From the NCBI GenBank assembly GCA_964459725.1, contig CAYWNT010000001.1, forward strand, positions 91,529 through 155,528: DNA of 64,000 nt. The letters are read 5' to 3'. The position numbers and the translations under genes were made by a program. Positions 5,401-43,452 of the stretch are shown here, piece by piece. This DNA comes from an uncultured Gammaproteobacteria bacterium. GTDB lineage: Bacteria > Patescibacteriota > Patescibacteriia > Patescibacteriales > UBA12075. The first letter of the stretch is position 1. The number at the start of each line of letters is the position of its first letter. The notes below the pieces were generated by a model. The model was not told where the DNA came from, made no database searches, and worked only from the letters and a program-made list of their open reading frames with translations.

Positions 5401-8400
5401 ACTGCTGAACAGTTGCCTTATGTTTTGATGGCTCCGTTTGATGATGTGGCCCAAGATGCGGTATTTAGTTTTAGGGCAAGAGATGATGCAACCGGCATCA
5501 ATGATCATAATGGAAGTAAGATATTTGCTCTTAATTTAGATGCCTTTGAATCACATAAGACCTATTATGCGGACACTAATACTGCAATAGCGGCCAGTCC
5601 ATCATGGACTGAGATTGGTAACCTTAATTCTGGGGGAAATTATCAACCTTCTACCACGGGAAATCAGTTTATATTTGCTTCCTGGATTGATGATGCTGCT
5701 AGTGCTTCAGCCGGAACTAATGACAGATTGCAGGTGAATGGGTCTACAGTTCCAACAGGATGGGATTGGGCACAGGGTGGAGCAGTAAGTAGAACTACTC
5801 ATGATGGAAGTGATGAAAATTTATTCAACATCTCTGCTGTAGCCAGTATTCCTACCACAGGAAATCCAATTGATATGGACGCTACGGAAATTATCAGAAA
5901 TTCTCAAATTGCAGATGAGGTCAGTATGACTGTCTTCTCTACGGAGTTAGTTGGTCAGTTAGCCCCAACCGGGAATTTTAATTCAGTTGCTCAAAAAACA
6001 GATGGTTCAAAAATAGTTGATATTTCTATTGAGATAAATGATGCTAATTCAGATAACATAACGGCTAGGATAGACTATGCAACAGGCACTACTTGTAGTT
6101 TTGTCTCTCCCGGAGATCCTACCCTGGAAGAAGCAACTACTACAATCATAGAAGATTTTGGTGATGTTCATATTGATAATGAAAGCACTTATCAGGTCGG
6201 TACAACTAGTTATGAAATTATAACTACAAGCGGGTCAAATACGGTTAATTTTGACTGGAATGCATATTTAGATTTGCCAGGAATTGAGGGAAGTTATTGT
6301 GTGCAGTTAACCGCCAATGACGGAACAGTTGATCAGAGTCCGGTAGCTACTACAACTATTTATATAGACAATATAAACCCTACAGCTCCCGGGGTCTGGA
6401 CAGTTGAAAATATTTATTATGACGCTATAGAGTTTAATTTTGGTGCTACCTCAAGTGATACGAATTTTTCTGAGTATAGAATTTATTACAAGGAAGGTAC
6501 TTCCGGAGTAAGTCAGAGTGATAACTATTGGGGATCAAGTAATGATTCTAACTTAGGCTATGATGATTTCAATGGAGCAACTAGTACCCGAGTTGGCATA
6601 CTAAAGCCTGATACTGACTATGTATTTGCAGTTTACGGTGTAGATATTTATGGTAATGCTGCTAGCTCCTTAGAGCTTACTGTCAAAACTGGAACCGGTA
6701 GAGCTAATACCGTTGTTTTCCCAGCAGGAGTTTATTCAGCTGATGGCACTACTGGGCAAAATACGGATACTGATTATACATTTAATACTTTTAATTTTGA
6801 CTTAGTTGAGACTGGGGTAAAAATTGAAAATGCTTTTGTAATCTTCGAGGCGCAATTCGAAGCTTATGTAAATAACGCTAATCCTTATACTGGTTACTCA
6901 CTTTACTTTGATACTTGTGCAGAGCCTTGTACTGCTAATGCGGTTAGCGGAACGGATGCTGCTTCTACTACCGATACTACAACTTTGGCCAATAATGAAT
7001 CGGAGAGTAATCAAGGTAAGATGATTTTTGATGTAACTGAGGAGGCTCAAATGGCAAGTTACACTGGTGGTCAAATGGAGGCACAGGTCGGTTATAGAAT
7101 AAATAATGGTCTAACTGCTAACTCTATAAGTGCTGCCCGGGCCAGGTTGGTTGTTACCTATTCTTATCATCCTGATTCAGAGTCGCTGACCAAGACAGTT
7201 GTCTATCCGCTGGAGTCGACTGCAGCAGGGGATAGTGGTTCTAGACAGTCATCTCAGGCTATATGTACGGTTGATAATAATTGTCCTTTCTTTACTTACA
7301 ACATGGATATTCCGGAGTTTAGCTCTTCTCTTGCAGATTGGTTTAGCGTGACTGGTGTTAGGGATGGTAGTACTGATTCAAGGATTGACTTAAATATTGA
7401 AGGAAATGACAACCCAAGCTCAGTCTATGTCCATGAAGGAGCACTTGGAGGTCAGCAATCAACCTATCCAAATTTGATATTTGATGATACTCCAGGATTT
7501 ACTGAGAACACAGATCAAACATTAGAATATCATGTTTACACTGGAGGAACTACTTATTTGATGGGTGGAGAAGTTTATGATACTTATACGGCTTCAGCTA
7601 CAGCTCCAATTAAAACAAGAACTGTAGTTTTTCCTGTCGGAGTTTTGAATAACGGGATCACTACCGCCACATCTTCTGGAGGGGTAGATGTTTATTTCCC
7701 AGAAAACGGAACAACAAATGGGAATGTAGATATCAAGAGAGCTTGGTTCAGGGTTAAGACCAATAATAGAGTTGATGGCTCTCAGTACATGTATCTGAGA
7801 TCAAGAGTGGGAAGCACTGCCTCTTCATCAATGTATAGTTATAATTATAGTCCAGGAGGGTCAGTTATTAAGCCAGTCTTTGATATTTATCATGTGCTTG
7901 CTACTACCACATACAGCGAGCTAGATAACGCTAACGCCACAACTCCGGTAAAGGTAAATATTGATACTAGAAACAGTACGGTTAACAACGGAGGAACTTC
8001 AGTAGAGCTGGTGGTGACATACACTTACTCTTCAGAAGCTGAAGGATACCTAACATCACTTCTTGTAAATGGTGGACAAGTTGACAAGGAAACAAATACA
8101 GCTCTAGCTACTGGAACTACTGCTGCCTTAGTATTCCCTGAGGATGAAAGTAAGAGAACCTTGCTTGCTGCTGGCATGAATGCTAGTTACTTAATCAGCG
8201 ACGGAGATGGCGGGGTGCCGGTGGGTTATACCATAGATATTAATATGTCTACCACCACTCCAGTTTGTTCGGACATATTTGAGTCTCCAACTGATGGAAT
8301 CAATGCTTTTATTGAATACACCAAGGATGTAACAGCTGCGATCTCTAACGCTCACAATACAACTTATAACACTTGTTATTCTAATGACCAGGGCGGGGAT

Positions 8401-39560: not shown

Positions 39561-39621
39561 GTTTATTTTTAGCATTTTTTTTATGTATTGACTTATTGTA
39601 TGAACGTGTTAAAAATAAGAT

Positions 39622-39702
39622 ATGGAAAGAATCATTCAAACAATTTTAACAACAATTAAGTCTGTCCTGCTGGCAGGCGTTATTGTGTTGAAAAAAGTTT
39701 GA
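39622..39702 (+). CDS. Leaderless 26-aa hydrophobic micro-ORF (candidate leader peptide L1): MERIIQTILTTIKSVLLAGVIVLKKV
   Basis: The ATG lies 6 nt after a candidate -10 (aaaaat 39611-16). The -35 is TTGACT at 39588-93 with a 17-nt spacer. The stop codon lies inside the first arm of the downstream alternative hairpins. The ORF is below the 60-aa cutoff of the track. Confidence 0.4.
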   Translation: MERIIQTILTTIKSVLLAGVIVLKKV

Positions 39703-39770
39703 GTGGTTTAAGATGAAATAAACAAAAAGTTTAGATAAAGACCACTCAAACTAATTGAGCGGTCTTTTTT
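39697..39770 (+). promoter_or_regulatory. Antiterminator/terminator switch downstream of L1
   Basis: Seg1 is gtttgagtggt (39697-707, containing the L1 stop). Seg2 is (g)accactcaa(ac) (39740-51). Seg3 is ttgagcggtc (39755-64) followed by T6 (39765-70). Pairings 1:2 and 2:3 are mutually exclusive. Confidence 0.55.
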
Positions 39771-39795
39771 AACACAATCAATCTGGGAGGTGGTT

Positions 39796-40648: not shown

Positions 40649-40945
40649 ATGTATGATGATGAAAGCGGAAGCATTGGCGAAGATGCGGCGATCACCGAGA
40701 ATCAGATGAGGAAATCATTAGGATTAGGTGAGCCTAAAATCAAAGTACTAGAAATTTTTATGTCAGAGGAGGAGCTGAGGAATAAGTTGCCGGTTGGAAA
40801 GGTGGCTGTAGCGGGAAAAAGAAAAGGGCTATTGCATCTTCATAGTGACAGACCCCTTGATCCCAGTGAAGAAGATGTAAAATTTCATTTATCTGGAGCA
40901 AAAATGATTTTTGGTGAAAAAAATGTGGTTTTAGTAGAGAGCTAA
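40649..40945 (+). CDS. Hypothetical 98-aa protein
   Basis: ORF track entry. The GGGGG RBS lies 6-7 nt upstream of the ATG. I recognise no family. Confidence 0.55.
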   Translation: MYDDESGSIGEDAAITENQMRKSLGLGEPKIKVLEIFMSEEELRNKLPVGKVAVAGKRKGLLHLHSDRPLDPSEEDVKFHLSGAKMIFGEKNVVLVES

Positions 40946-40997
40946 TTTTTTCTACTTTATCACAACCTCCCCACGAGATAAAACTTGTGGGGAGGGA

Positions 40998-41025
40998 TTG
41001 ACTTTTATAAAAACTTTGATAATAT
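40998..41025 (+). promoter_or_regulatory. Sigma70-type promoter with extended -10
   Basis: TTGACT at 40998-41003, a 16-nt spacer, then TGaTAATAT at 41017-25. Confidence 0.55.
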
Positions 41026-41031
41026 ATTCAC

Positions 41032-41106
41032 ATGAAAAAAGTTTATGTAAAAAACTTATTATTAGGTTTATTGCTGCTTTTTACGAGCGGTCTTGTTTTT
41101 GTTTGA
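41032..41106 (+). CDS. Leaderless 24-aa Leu-rich micro-ORF (candidate leucine leader peptide L2): MKKVYVKNLLLGLLLLFTSGLVFV
   Basis: The ATG lies 7 nt after the -10. Eight of 24 codons are Leu, with runs tta tta tta and tta ttg ctg ctt. It lies upstream of a terminator and a LeuA-family gene. Confidence 0.45.
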   Translation: MKKVYVKNLLLGLLLLFTSGLVFV

Positions 41107-41133
41107 AAAAGTATAACATTTCTTACAAAAAAT

Positions 41134-41159
41134 AAGACTGCCAGAATAGGCAGTTTTTT
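41134..41159 (+). terminator. Attenuator terminator between L2 and the LeuA-like gene
   Basis: actgcc (41137-42) pairs with ggcagt (41149-54), followed by a T-run to 41159. The upstream gcggtctt (41086-93, inside L2) can pair with aagactgc (41134-41) as an antiterminator. Confidence 0.5.
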
Positions 41160-41205
41160 AATTGTTCTTTAAATCTATAATTCAACCAGCATAAAGGGGG
41201 AAGTA

Positions 41206-42828
41206 ATGAGGAAAATTATTTTACGTGATGTGCTCTTGAGAGAGTCTGACCAAGTTGAAGGCGGAGCAATGTCCCCTAGGGATCAGCTGAATTATGTTCA
41301 GCTTTTGATTGAGGGAGGTATTGACGAAATTGAGGTCGGTTATCCAAGTAGCACAGCAGAGCAGTTGGCAACTTGCAAAAGAATTATAGCATTTGTAGAT
41401 GAATTTTGTACTAGAAATCCGAAGTTAAATCGTCCTCTTTTGTCAGGACTTTCTGTGGCAAGAAAGAAGTCTATTGATGCGGTGGCAGAGGCCGGTTTGG
41501 ATATTTGTCATATTTACATTCCCGCTAGTGACGAGCTTCTTCAGGCTCAGTTTGGTGATATGAAGTATGGTGAAACTCAGGAAGAGAAACGCGATTGGGT
41601 AATTAGGCAAGCTGCCAAGATGGTGAAATATGCAAAATCATTAGACTTCAAAAAGGTTCAGTATTCTCCTGAGGATGCTGGTAGAACTGGTAAGGAGTAT
41701 TTACTCCGTGTTGTTTCGTCTGTGGCTTCGGCTGGAGTTGATTATTTGAATATTCCAGACACTACAGGACATTGTATTGGTTCAGAGTTTCGTGATTTGA
41801 TTAAATGTGTTTCTGATGCCCTTGTGGGTTTTAATCAAGTTGAGATATCTGTCCATTGCCACAATGATTATGATCACTCCGTGCCCAATGCTATTCAAGC
41901 AGTGCTGGGTGGGGCAACTCAGATTGAAGGTACTTTTTACGGATTAGGAGAGCGCAGTGGGATGACCAAGTTTGAATCTGTTCTTTTGGTAATGAGCTCA
42001 AGAAAAGATATTTTTGAGGATTTCGAGATAGGATTCAAAAAGCAGGGTACAGTAAAATTGGTAAATTTTCTGGGCAACGCCCTTGGCATGCCAGTTCCCA
42101 GACATTGGCCGGTAGTTGGTATTCAAAATGGCATATGTAGCTCAGGTACACATCAGGCTATTGAAGCTAGGGCTAAGGAGGCAGGAAAACCAAGTCCTTA
42201 TTATGGATGGGATCCTAAATCGTTTGGTCACGAAAGTGTAAAAATAGTGATCAATAAATCTTCTGGTAGAATTGGCATTGGCAAGAAACTGAGAGAGCTG
42301 GGCTTCTTGGTGGCCAAAAAGGATATCTCCTTAGTTTATGATAAGGTTATGGAGATATCAGAGGCCAAGGGAGGAAAAGAGGTCGAAGAAGCAGAGCTCA
42401 TTGCTATTGCCCAGGATGTTGTCTCAGAGATTCCCTTTTATATTAATATTGACTGGTGTCAGGTGGTTGGAGGGAGAGGAACAATTCCAACCAGTACTGT
42501 AAAACTGGAAGTTAAGGGAGAGGTAAAGATTGACTCAGCAGTTGGTGATGGAACTATTGATGCTATTATGAAAGCAGTCCTTAGGACAGCGAGACAGCAT
42601 TTTCCTGCTTTAAATGATGTTGAGATCGCCTTAGACCATTGCTCCTTTGTAGGTGTCACTAAAGGTTCAGATGCTCTGGCGGATTTTTACTGTAGAATCA
42701 GGGTGGAAAACGGAGAACCTCAGCTTTTTGCTGGAAGATCTGTTCATTTGGACACTTCTCAGGCAGCAGCACAGTCATTTGCTAACTGTATTAGTTGGTT
42801 TTTGGCATCGAAAAATGGGAGTGGATAA
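41206..42828 (+). CDS. 2-isopropylmalate/citramalate/homocitrate synthase family protein (HMGL-like domain plus a LeuA-type C-terminal domain)
   Basis: EVGYPSS, IPDTTGHCIG and HCHNDYDHSVPNAIQAVLGGATQIEGTFYGLGERSGMTKFESV match the DRE-TIM aldolase motifs of the LeuA/NifV/CimA family. The C-terminal GDGTIDAIMKAV region is like the regulatory domain. The GGGGGA RBS is present. Confidence 0.8.
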   Translation: MRKIILRDVLLRESDQVEGGAMSPRDQLNYVQLLIEGGIDEIEVGYPSSTAEQLATCKRIIAFVDEFCTRNPKLNRPLLSGLSVARKKSIDAVAEAGLDICHIYIPASDELLQAQFGDMKYGETQEEKRDWVIRQAAKMVKYAKSLDFKKVQYSPEDAGRTGKEYLLRVVSSVASAGVDYLNIPDTTGHCIGSEFRDLIKCVSDALVGFNQVEISVHCHNDYDHSVPNAIQAVLGGATQIEGTFYGLGERSGMTKFESVLLVMSSRKDIFEDFEIGFKKQGTVKLVNFLGNALGMPVPRHWPVVGIQNGICSSGTHQAIEARAKEAGKPSPYYGWDPKSFGHESVKIVINKSSGRIGIGKKLRELGFLVAKKDISLVYDKVMEISEAKGGKEVEEAELIAIAQDVVSEIPFYINIDWCQVVGGRGTIPTSTVKLEVKGEVKIDSAVGDGTIDAIMKAVLRTARQHFPALNDVEIALDHCSFVGVTKGSDALADFYCRIRVENGEPQLFAGRSVHLDTSQAAAQSFANCISWFLASKNGSG

Positions 42829-42900: not shown

Positions 42901-42929
42901 TTGAATATTTTTTTCAATTATGCTATATT
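42901..42929 (+). promoter_or_regulatory. Sigma70-type promoter
   Basis: TTGAAT at 42901-06, a 17-nt spacer, then TATATT at 42924-29. Confidence 0.5.
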
Positions 42930-42937
42930 AGTTTTAT

Positions 42938-43030
42938 ATGATTAAGACATTACAAAAAACTTATTTCTATTTTTGGTTCTTCTTCTTCCGAAGTCGGAGA
43001 TTAGTTTTTTGTGGTGTTTTAACTGATTAA
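42938..43030 (+). CDS. Near-leaderless 30-aa aromatic-rich micro-ORF (candidate leader peptide L3): MIKTLQKTYFYFWFFFFRSRRLVFCGVLTD
   Basis: The ATG lies 9 nt after the -10. Nine consecutive aromatic codons (tat ttc tat ttt tgg ttc ttc ttc ttc) are followed by a terminator. Confidence 0.4.
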   Translation: MIKTLQKTYFYFWFFFFRSRRLVFCGVLTD

Positions 43031-43055
43031 GTTTGCACCATTAGGGAAAACAAAA

Positions 43056-43090
43056 CTGGTCTCCATTACGGAGGCCAGTTTTATTTTTAT
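43056..43090 (+). terminator. Terminator downstream of L3
   Basis: ctggtctcc (43056-64) pairs with ggaggccag (43070-78) with one G-U pair, followed by ttttatttttat. The upstream ggaga (42996-43000, inside L3) can pair with tctcc, but this alternative is weak. Confidence 0.6.
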
Positions 43091-43115
43091 TAATAAAACA
43101 AAAGAGGAGGAGAAG

Positions 43116-43292
43116 ATGAAGGATATTTATGCATCGCCATGGTCAGAAGAAAGCTTGAATGCCGCCAGGGAGGAAGTCCAATCAAGCGCTGTGAAAGGAA
43201 CAGCTATAGAGGAGTCAAGAATAGGTTTGGCAATGCAAGTTAAAAATCCACCGTCAAGAATACAGGAGAAAGGAGGGGAAAATGCAGAGTAG
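43116..43292 (+). CDS. Hypothetical 58-aa protein (MKDIYASPWSEESLNAAREEV...)
   Basis: A strong RBS (AGAGGAGG) lies 6 nt upstream. The ORF is below the track cutoff and I translated it by hand. Confidence 0.5.
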   Translation: MKDIYASPWSEESLNAAREEVQSSAVKGTAIEESRIGLAMQVKNPPSRIQEKGGENAE

Positions 43293-43452
43293 GCCTGAAG
43301 TATTAACAAATGCAATGAAAGGCAGAGGCAAAGTTGCCGAGAATAGCGAAAAAACTGCTATTTTAAAGGCGAATGGAGAGCAAGTACCTCGCAAGCCTCC
43401 ACCCACAATAGAGCCAAAACCGACACATGCTGGTGATGATGCAGGTTTTTAA
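43282..43452 (+). CDS. Hypothetical 56-aa protein (MQSRPEVLTNAMKGRGKV...PPPTIEPKPTHAGDDAGF), overlapping the previous ORF by 11 nt
   Basis: The RBS AAAGGAGGGG is embedded in the end of the upstream ORF. The ATG at 43282 is in the +1 frame relative to it. Confidence 0.5.
   Translation: MQSRPEVLTNAMKGRGKVAENSEKTAILKANGEQVPRKPPPTIEPKPTHAGDDAGF

Follow-up and report, generated by a model that had tools for sequence, protein, structure and literature searches.

A leucine-run leader open reading frame and a candidate transcription attenuator upstream of a LeuA-family gene of a Patescibacteria-type genome

We analysed a stretch of 64,000 nucleotides (nt) from contig CAYWNT010000001.1 of an uncultured bacterium with a Patescibacteria-type genome (the window), and in particular the region in front of a gene for a LeuA-family synthase, here called leuA. 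Between a promoter and this gene lie a short open reading frame (ORF) with a run of Leu codons and an intrinsic terminator. An earlier note on the same DNA had read this arrangement as classical leader-peptide attenuation. The features of the locus, the neighbouring cassettes and the leader peptides of orthologous loci are collected in Table 1.

Leader ORF, terminator and antiterminator

The leader ORF uses eight of its 24 codons for Leu, and seven of these fall inside eight consecutive codons, as a run of three (41056-41064) followed by a run of four (41068-41079); translation of 41032-41106 bears out the composition that the earlier note had given. We asked how unusual such an ORF is among the 453 small ORFs of the window (ATG-initiated, 15-60 codons, both strands). 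It is the only one with at least seven Leu in eight codons, and first-order Markov simulation puts the expected number at 0.02 per window. Leu accounts for 6.1% of codons across the genes of the window, and together with the ORF counts this shows that the run is not a by-product of AT-richness.

The terminator hairpin of the preceding gene shields the leuA cassette from upstream transcription, and a sigma-70-type promoter follows it. This promoter ends 6 nt before the leader ATG. The usual spacing from a -10 element to the transcription start is about 7 nt, and we predict that transcription starts on the A of the leader ATG (41032) or on a neighbouring base. Neither the window leader nor any of the others compared has a Shine-Dalgarno sequence. 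Because the promoter lies so close to the ATG and a Shine-Dalgarno sequence is missing, the leader is probably translated as a leaderless ORF. In contrast to the leaders, leuA is preceded by a strong Shine-Dalgarno sequence in most loci, the window included. A separate leuA promoter at the perfect TATAAT between terminator and gene (41176-41181) was considered and rejected, as it has no acceptable -35.

Downstream of the leader stop codon, the terminator has the core that the earlier note had described, actgcc (41137-41142) and ggcagt (41149-41154) with a T-run, here T6 at 41154-41159, and the hairpin can be extended to 41134-41157. When the segment downstream of the stop codon is folded alone it forms this terminator, at -12.0 kcal/mol. 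Intrinsic terminators are in general use in the genome (19 against 4.9 expected, over 9 kb).

The 5' arm of the terminator has a second partner. The end of the leader ORF (region 2) forms a duplex of 15 base pairs (bp) with region 3 (-18.0 kcal/mol, z = -5.35 against shuffles), and this duplex overlaps nine of the nine nucleotides of the terminator 5' arm. An 8-bp antiterminator had been proposed here, pairing aagactgc with gcggtctt at 41086-93. The pairing is present and larger than claimed; aagactgc does lie at 41134-41141, and gcggtctt is off by one, at 41087-41094, 10-17 nt ahead of the first base of the stop codon (41104). An outer helix, 41073-41079 with 41147-41153, sequesters the terminator 3' arm too, and the whole of 41060-41165 folds as one long hairpin (-29.3 kcal/mol, z = -4.3 against shuffles). 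Terminator and antiterminator exclude each other, and the strand that switches is part of the ORF itself, downstream of the Leu run and upstream of the stop codon.

Table 1. Features of the leuA locus, neighbouring cassettes and leader peptides of orthologous loci. Unlabelled positions are those of the window; peptides run to the stop codon, except the internal part given for L091.
Feature	Position	Strand	Details
Intrinsic terminator hairpin of the preceding 98-amino-acid gene (40649-40945)	40966-40995	+	12 pairs, 8 of them G-C
Sigma-70-type promoter	40998-41025	+	-35 TTGACT (40998-41003); 16-nt spacer; extended -10 TGaTAATAT (TG at 41017-18, hexamer 41020-41025)
Leader peptide ORF	41032-41106	+	24 codons and stop, MKKVYVKNLLLGLLLLFTSGLVFV; stop codon 41104-41106
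Candidate regulatory Leu codons	41056-41079	+	TTA TTA TTA ggt TTA TTG CTG CTT
Region 2, antiterminator 5' strand	41084-41101	+	Last 7 leader codons; ends 2 nt before stop
Region 3, antiterminator 3' strand	41127-41143	+	5' flank and whole terminator 5' arm
Intrinsic terminator, regions 3:4	41134-41159	+	AAGACTGCC / loop AGAATA / GGCAGTTTT; free energy -12.0 kcal/mol
Shine-Dalgarno of the structural gene	41196-41201	+	GGGGGA, read from sequence
LeuA-family synthase	41206-42828	+	540 amino acids; HMGL-like catalytic and LeuA_dimer regulatory domains
Cassette 3, aromatic-run leader	42901-43100		ORF 42938-43030, MIKTLQKTYFYFWFFFFRSRRLVFCGVLTD; terminator 43052-43082
Cassette 1, Ile/Leu/Val/Thr-rich (branched-chain type) leader	39588-39790		ORF 39622-39702, MERIIQTILTTIKSVLLAGVIVLKKV
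Leader L090			MKQVTLKNLLLGLLLLLLPQRVACFNVKI
Leader L085			MKQANFTKQLLSLLLLEPSGQAACFYMNKL
Leader L095			MKHYTAQNLLALLLLVEEGFCVG
Leader L087			MNRAIPQNLLLSLLLLKSPRVALFSRR
Leader L093			MFKINQKLNIKPFLNLLLLLPLRRVAVFT
Leader L091, internal part			SLLGLLLLLLSYF
Leader L094			MSKIMQKISKSLLLLSLLLSLLGRDFLDGLNAKA
Leader L098			MNLAQTKNLTLNLSLLLLALLLLLPFGVAKLSLL
Leader L099			MKIANVQNLLLSLLSLLLPRRVAGFPAY
Tandem leaders L096	L096 3680-3751 and 3832-3906		MKYHATQNLLALLLLVEEGFCVG and MKHHFVQKLHKWLPLLLSVCFCVE

Conservation and covariation across orthologous loci

We compared 16 independent orthologous loci (the window, L084-L087, L089-L096, L098 and L099; L088 shares a contig with L093). These were gathered by exact-protein look-ups and by one metagenome-contig scan with a clade-specific block of 54 residues, which gave six useful loci. 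A search of genome contigs with a single-protein query returned no match, and one with an alignment query was swamped by canonical LeuA genes of about 30% identity (L001-L080) and was unusable. The earlier note had left room for the micro-ORF being absent upstream of orthologous genes; a Leu-run micro-ORF precedes the gene in 15 of the 16 loci, at 44-63% protein identity. One locus, L096, has two Leu-type leaders in tandem before a single leuA orthologue, and each of the two has a separate terminator.

All six Leu codons are in use across the loci, and positions that are TTA or TTG in some are CTG, CTA or CTC in others. The leaders of the closely related L085 and L086 differ by three changes within the Leu run, all synonymous, and by five outside it, of which four are non-synonymous. 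Leu identity thus survives synonymous and two-base codon changes, which argues that selection acts on decoding and not on the nucleotides. Beyond the run the peptide is unconserved; what is conserved there is RNA complementarity.

A near-consensus promoter (TTGACA/T, spacer of 16-17 nt, TG-extended -10) ends 6-12 nt before the ATG in nine of 13 leaders. Judged by promoter spacing, the ORF would be leaderless in the window, L095 and L096a, and preceded by a 5' untranslated region of 1-5 nt in the remaining leaders.

A hairpin with a T-run follows the leader in every one of the 15 leader-bearing loci. We measured the ranges of geometry, pairing and folding on 13 leaders, and L098 and L099 were computed separately. 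The geometry is conserved: the stop codon follows the final Leu of the run at a distance of 24-45 nt, and the terminator lies 18-37 nt beyond the stop codon. The start of region 2 is 4-19 nt past the final Leu of the run, and its end falls anywhere from 14 nt before to 11 nt after the stop codon. When region 4, the terminator 3' arm, was removed, the minimum-energy fold sequestered 75-100% of the terminator 5' arm in 13 of 13 leaders, and in all 13 the partner was the last codons of the ORF. The region 2:3 duplexes span 9-18 bp, with energies from -12.8 to -24.8 kcal/mol; those of L098 and L099 reach -20.7 and -21.5 kcal/mol (z = -5.1 and -4.1, respectively).

The terminator arms vary by locus (ACUGCC, GCCACC, GCCGCC, UAGCCAC, ACCAUCC, CCUGAC, GCUCGACA and AGCUAUCC), and region 2 tracks them. 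It reads GGGCGGC against GCCGCCC in L089, GGGUGGC against GCCACCU in L093, and UUUGGAUGGUUU against AAACCAUCCAAA in L094. We tested this covariation by comparing the energies of cognate and non-cognate duplexes and by tabulating the pairs at each position. The mean region 2:3 energy was -15.3 kcal/mol for cognate and -11.2 kcal/mol for non-cognate combinations, and none of 20,000 permutations reached the cognate mean. At the loop-proximal positions of the terminator 5' arm, 87 of 90 are in a standard pair with region 2, with three to five pair types per position. The antiterminator pairing, for which a want of covariation had been named as the other possible failing of the attenuation reading, is therefore backed by stronger cognate duplexes and by nearly complete pairing.

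The predicted resting states differ among the loci. In L085, L086, L087, L090, L091, L095 and L096 the full-length minimum-energy fold consists of a 5' hairpin between the ORF start and region 2 together with the terminator, corresponding to the classical 1:2 / 3:4 state; the ground state is the antiterminator in the window, L089, L092 and L094. The 1:2 pause or protector hairpin is predicted, at significant z-scores, in L090, L095, L096a and L094; in the window, as in several other loci, it is weak or missing.

We note a T-rich motif right after the terminator T-run (consensus roughly GWTCTTTWMAAA), found in the window at 41163-41174 and also in L085, L086, L094 and L091; instances are ttgttctttaaa, gatctttgcaaa, gatctttacaaa and gctctttacaaa.

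A candidate attenuator and competing explanations

We consider it highly likely that the element is a ribosome-mediated leader-peptide transcription attenuator that ties expression of the leuA-lineage gene to the supply of charged tRNA-Leu. The micro-ORF in 15 of 16 loci and the covariation of antiterminator with terminator support, at the level of sequence, the classical attenuation at leuA that the earlier note had proposed.

In the proposed mechanism, transcription from the strong promoter at 40998-41025 would start at about the AUG at 41032, and the 24-codon leader would be translated. With Leu-tRNA plentiful, the ribosome would pass the seven Leu codons at 41056-41079, cover region 2 and reach the stop at 41104. 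Region 2 being occluded, region 3 would pair with region 4, the hairpin at 41134-41157 and its U-run would form, and RNA polymerase would halt about 47 nt before leuA. With Leu-tRNA scarce, the ribosome would stall on the early Leu codons and leave region 2 exposed to form 15 bp with 41127-41143; this antiterminator would use up the whole terminator 5' arm and allow read-through into leuA (41206-42828). The ribosome footprint sizes assumed for the masking of region 2 are general knowledge.

Several observations weigh against this proposal or narrow it. In L084, the closest orthologue at 63% identity, the gene follows a plain promoter without a leader, and L089, L092 and L093 show no sigma-70-type promoter directly upstream of the micro-ORF. 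The pairing tables are based on energy and optimised in favour of pairing. Applied to a plain MAFFT alignment of the 13 leaders, RNAalifold recovered the terminator only, with compensatory changes in five of eight pairs; it missed the antiterminator, whose longer-range helix is out of register in this alignment. The perfect TATAAT between terminator and leuA counts here as well, though it lacks an acceptable -35. In the window, the antiterminator hairpin (about -29 kcal/mol) is much stabler than the terminator (-12 kcal/mol) and the fold contains no convincing 1:2 protector hairpin, so that an untranslated leader is predicted to read through, and termination would therefore happen only if a ribosome got to region 2 soon enough. 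In the window, region 2 also starts just 4 nt past the last Leu codon of the run, so that a ribosome would have to stall on one of about the first five or six Leu codons to leave it free.

It is distinctly improbable that the switch is real but set by an RNA-binding protein, by direct action of uncharged tRNA or by general translation capacity, with the Leu run incidental. The default fold of the window fits such a reading, since with the antiterminator as ground state any slowing of translation would give read-through. However, the persistence of Leu through synonymous and two-base codon changes implies selection on decoding, and the run keeps its place with respect to region 2 across loci. 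Neither a T-box nor a riboswitch nor any other Rfam family matched the window or the 12 orthologous loci scanned. This includes Leu_leader (RF00512) and the other leader families, none of which gave a gathering-score match; up to E = 10 there were only chance-level matches (miRNA families, and Phe_leader and His_leader, scoring 20-24 bits where 49-55 were required), and RF00512 was not among them. T-box leaders work by direct binding of uncharged tRNA, for which a leader ORF is not required. The leucine T-boxes of Firmicutes resemble the present element in sensing tRNA-Leu charging through a choice between terminator and antiterminator, but no T-box model matches the window and the feature that is conserved is a run of Leu codons in an ORF. 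A T-box or riboswitch was rejected on these grounds.

The micro-ORF could also be a gene in its own right, for a small hydrophobic peptide of membrane or signal-like type, served by a separate promoter and terminator, with leuA transcribed independently from a weak promoter past the terminator. We regard this as very improbable. The leader peptide does have a charged N terminus followed by a hydrophobic stretch, a perfect TATAAT is available at 41176-41181, and in four loci the distance from terminator to leuA is 150-350 nt. However, the hydrophobic stretch is almost pure Leu in 15 of 15 loci and not a mixture of L, I, V, A and F, and the sequence after the run is kept as the complement of the local terminator arm and not as a peptide. 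The enriched residue fits the downstream pathway in Leu and aromatic cassettes alike (see below), the TATAAT has no -35 and a promoter scan reported none there, and in 15 of 16 loci the micro-ORF accompanies a gene of this family.

A chance ORF in AT-rich intergenic DNA beside an ordinary terminator or hairpin, as an AT-rich genome with common TTA and TTG codons and 453 short ORFs in the window might suggest, is refuted by the comparative data, with 0.02 such ORFs expected per window, the ORF kept in 15 of 16 loci at 44-63% protein identity, and pairing that covaries.

The attenuator proposed here resembles well-known systems. In the leu leader of Escherichia coli and Salmonella, the leuL ORF with consecutive Leu codons precedes a terminator in front of leuA, and an antiterminator uses the 5' arm of that terminator. 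The window shares with it the Leu-codon leader ORF, the terminator before leuA, the mutually exclusive antiterminator and a stop codon placed to mask region 2. It differs in having seven Leu in eight codons of mixed type where the enterobacterial leader has four consecutive Leu codons, in a leader ORF that lacks a Shine-Dalgarno sequence and starts at about the transcription start, and in a leuA-family gene that stands alone and not in a leuABCD operon. The window also has no clear 1:2 hairpin, and its untranslated RNA is predicted to read through and not to terminate. This would be the opposite of the E. coli trp leader, which shows superattenuation when untranslated.

In Corynebacterium glutamicum, leader peptides before leuA, trpE, ilvB and aroF were detected by RNA sequencing (PMC3890552), and the leuA leader (cgb_03035/cg4015) has four consecutive Leu codons before a monocistronic leuA (PMC4046766). 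The title of Morbach et al. 2000, as cited in PMC4046766, reports an ilvB leader peptide formed without a ribosome binding site. Going by that title, this leader is the closest parallel to the start of the window leader without a Shine-Dalgarno sequence. C. glutamicum belongs to the Actinobacteria and is a full prototroph, whereas the window comes from a Patescibacteria-type genome with no leuCD or leuB within 74 kb; a sequence relationship between the two leaders is not established.

In the literature searched we found no description of leader-peptide attenuation or of the leucine pathway in Patescibacteria. The mechanism is a textbook one and holds no new regulatory principle; its presence and strong conservation are new for this lineage. 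Members of the lineage would thus monitor tRNA-Leu charging in the classical way. The leader offers annotators a concrete RNA element to model, and a compact switch of 210 nt for heterologous tests.

The enzyme, its pathway context and neighbouring cassettes

The 540-amino-acid protein matches PF00682 (HMGL-like, a TIM-barrel; 4.8e-50) and PF08502 (the C-terminal LeuA_dimer domain; 5e-17). We placed it among the LeuA, HCS, NifV and CimA families by ranking NCBIfam scores. The best matches are all bacterial LeuA models, at 300 bits (cut-off 532) and 277 bits (cut-off 599); these scores are about half of the cut-offs, and the equivalog cut-offs of NF002086 and TIGR00973 are not reached. Other models score lower (HCS 159, NifV 158 and CimA 114 bits). 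The nearest solved structures are enzymes of the isopropylmalate synthase type (E about 1e-36).

A database search placed the protein in a sharply bounded clade of 48 proteins that are 44-63% identical to the query; canonical LeuA comes next, at about 32% or less. Of the members that bear a name, nearly all are listed as Patescibacteria or Parcubacteria. Within the clade the HCHND metal site is invariant, as is the substrate Arg, and the canonical LRDGEQ is replaced by LRESAQ (window 41239-41253, residues 12-16). The residue aligned with the Asp of LRDGEQ, which binds the metal in solved LeuA structures, is Glu in 42 of 47 clade members, and the following GE is S/G-A. To judge from the motif, LRESAQ may reflect an altered metal site or substrate pocket, and it flags the clade as one whose substrate is worth measuring.

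By Pfam, the window contains no leuB, leuC, leuD or ilv gene, and none was found in the 10 kb beyond its 3' end. The earlier observation that no leuB, leuC or leuD is nearby thus holds over the approximately 74 kb inspected of a contig of about 200-224 kb. In two of the 16 loci the gene is associated with leuCD and leuB. In L092 the leader, leuA, a fused leuCD and leuB form one operon on the same strand; in L093 leuB and leuCD adjoin leuA in convergent orientation. The orthologues in both loci carry the same divergent LRESAQ motif, and some members of the lineage thus retain a leuA-leuCD-leuB operon. In the 3-5-kb flanks of the other loci, neither the Pfam tables of called genes nor tblastn with the LeuB and LeuCD of L093 revealed leuB or leuCD. 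In L098, a gene of the branched-chain aminotransferase type (Aminotran_4) follows about 2.4 kb downstream.

The links to leuCD and leuB in L092 and L093, the Leu-specific leader throughout the clade and the NCBIfam ranking indicate that the gene is most likely the real leuA lineage of these bacteria and not a citramalate or homocitrate synthase. From the orphan status of the gene, the earlier note had derived a citramalate- or homocitrate-type or a non-biosynthetic role; this is unsupported, as relatives sit with leuCD and leuB, LeuA models rank first and the leader is specific for Leu. In the window genome, leuCD and leuB may be kept elsewhere or may have been lost.

The leucine genes of L093 have peculiarities of their own. 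The LeuB homologue (5886-7493, - strand; 535 amino acids) carries a DUF559-like extension at the N terminus, fused to its isopropylmalate dehydrogenase domain, and the adjoining gene of 664 amino acids is a fused LeuC-LeuD.

Two further cassettes in the window are built like that of leuA, and they support the general attenuation reading. The leader of cassette 3, downstream of leuA, is the only small ORF of the window with an aromatic run. Its homologues lie in L094 at about 6695-6790 (MIKTLAKTVLSFSFFFYGFQRGSAVFGDVL) and in L084 at about 2758-2829 (MIKNIQKTFTSFWFYFYGFSPKG), where one or two small ORFs separate the leader from a prephenate dehydratase gene; the L094 locus continues with genes for prephenate dehydrogenase and an aminotransferase. 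In the window, cassette 3 is followed by two small ORFs only, without Pfam matches (43116-43292 and 43282-43452).

Cassette 1, upstream of leuA, has an extended -10 promoter and a terminator at about 39739-39776, whose 5' arm AAGACCACTCAAAC is complementary to GTTTGAGTGGTTT, a segment that overlaps the leader stop codon. L094 carries a Val/Ala-rich counterpart of this leader at 751-855 (MSLAIQKINAVLAVVLAVVVAVIASAFFGWHLSF). In the window and in L094, the genes downstream of this type of cassette are small ORFs without known function, and in the window cassettes 1 and 3 both precede only small proteins of this kind.

Patescibacteria, also called Candidate Phyla Radiation (CPR) bacteria, are generally regarded as amino-acid auxotrophs. 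It is possible, though we think it unlikely, that the window genome has lost the leucine pathway after LeuA while keeping an intact LeuA-family enzyme and the attenuators of all three cassettes, and that the three cassettes form a battery that senses amino-acid starvation in an auxotrophic, host-dependent bacterium, with 2-isopropylmalate or another 2-alkylmalate made for a purpose other than leucine. The 2-alkylmalate could then serve, for example, as a signal or as a metabolite exchanged with the host.

Elsewhere, the gene content of the window is that of a typical small CPR genome, with aminoacyl-tRNA synthetases, glycolytic enzymes and ScpAB. It also holds a single ORF of 8899 amino acids (2413-29112), in which two stretches of 1000 residues that we tested had almost no Pfam matches. 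Directly upstream of the leuA cassette lies a small protein without Pfam matches, both in the window (40649-40945, 98 amino acids) and in L084 (552-866, 104 amino acids). By eye, the two share short stretches, for example EELRNKLPVGKVAV against KELTSALPDGTAVV, which suggests that this small protein is a conserved neighbour of the leuA cassette.

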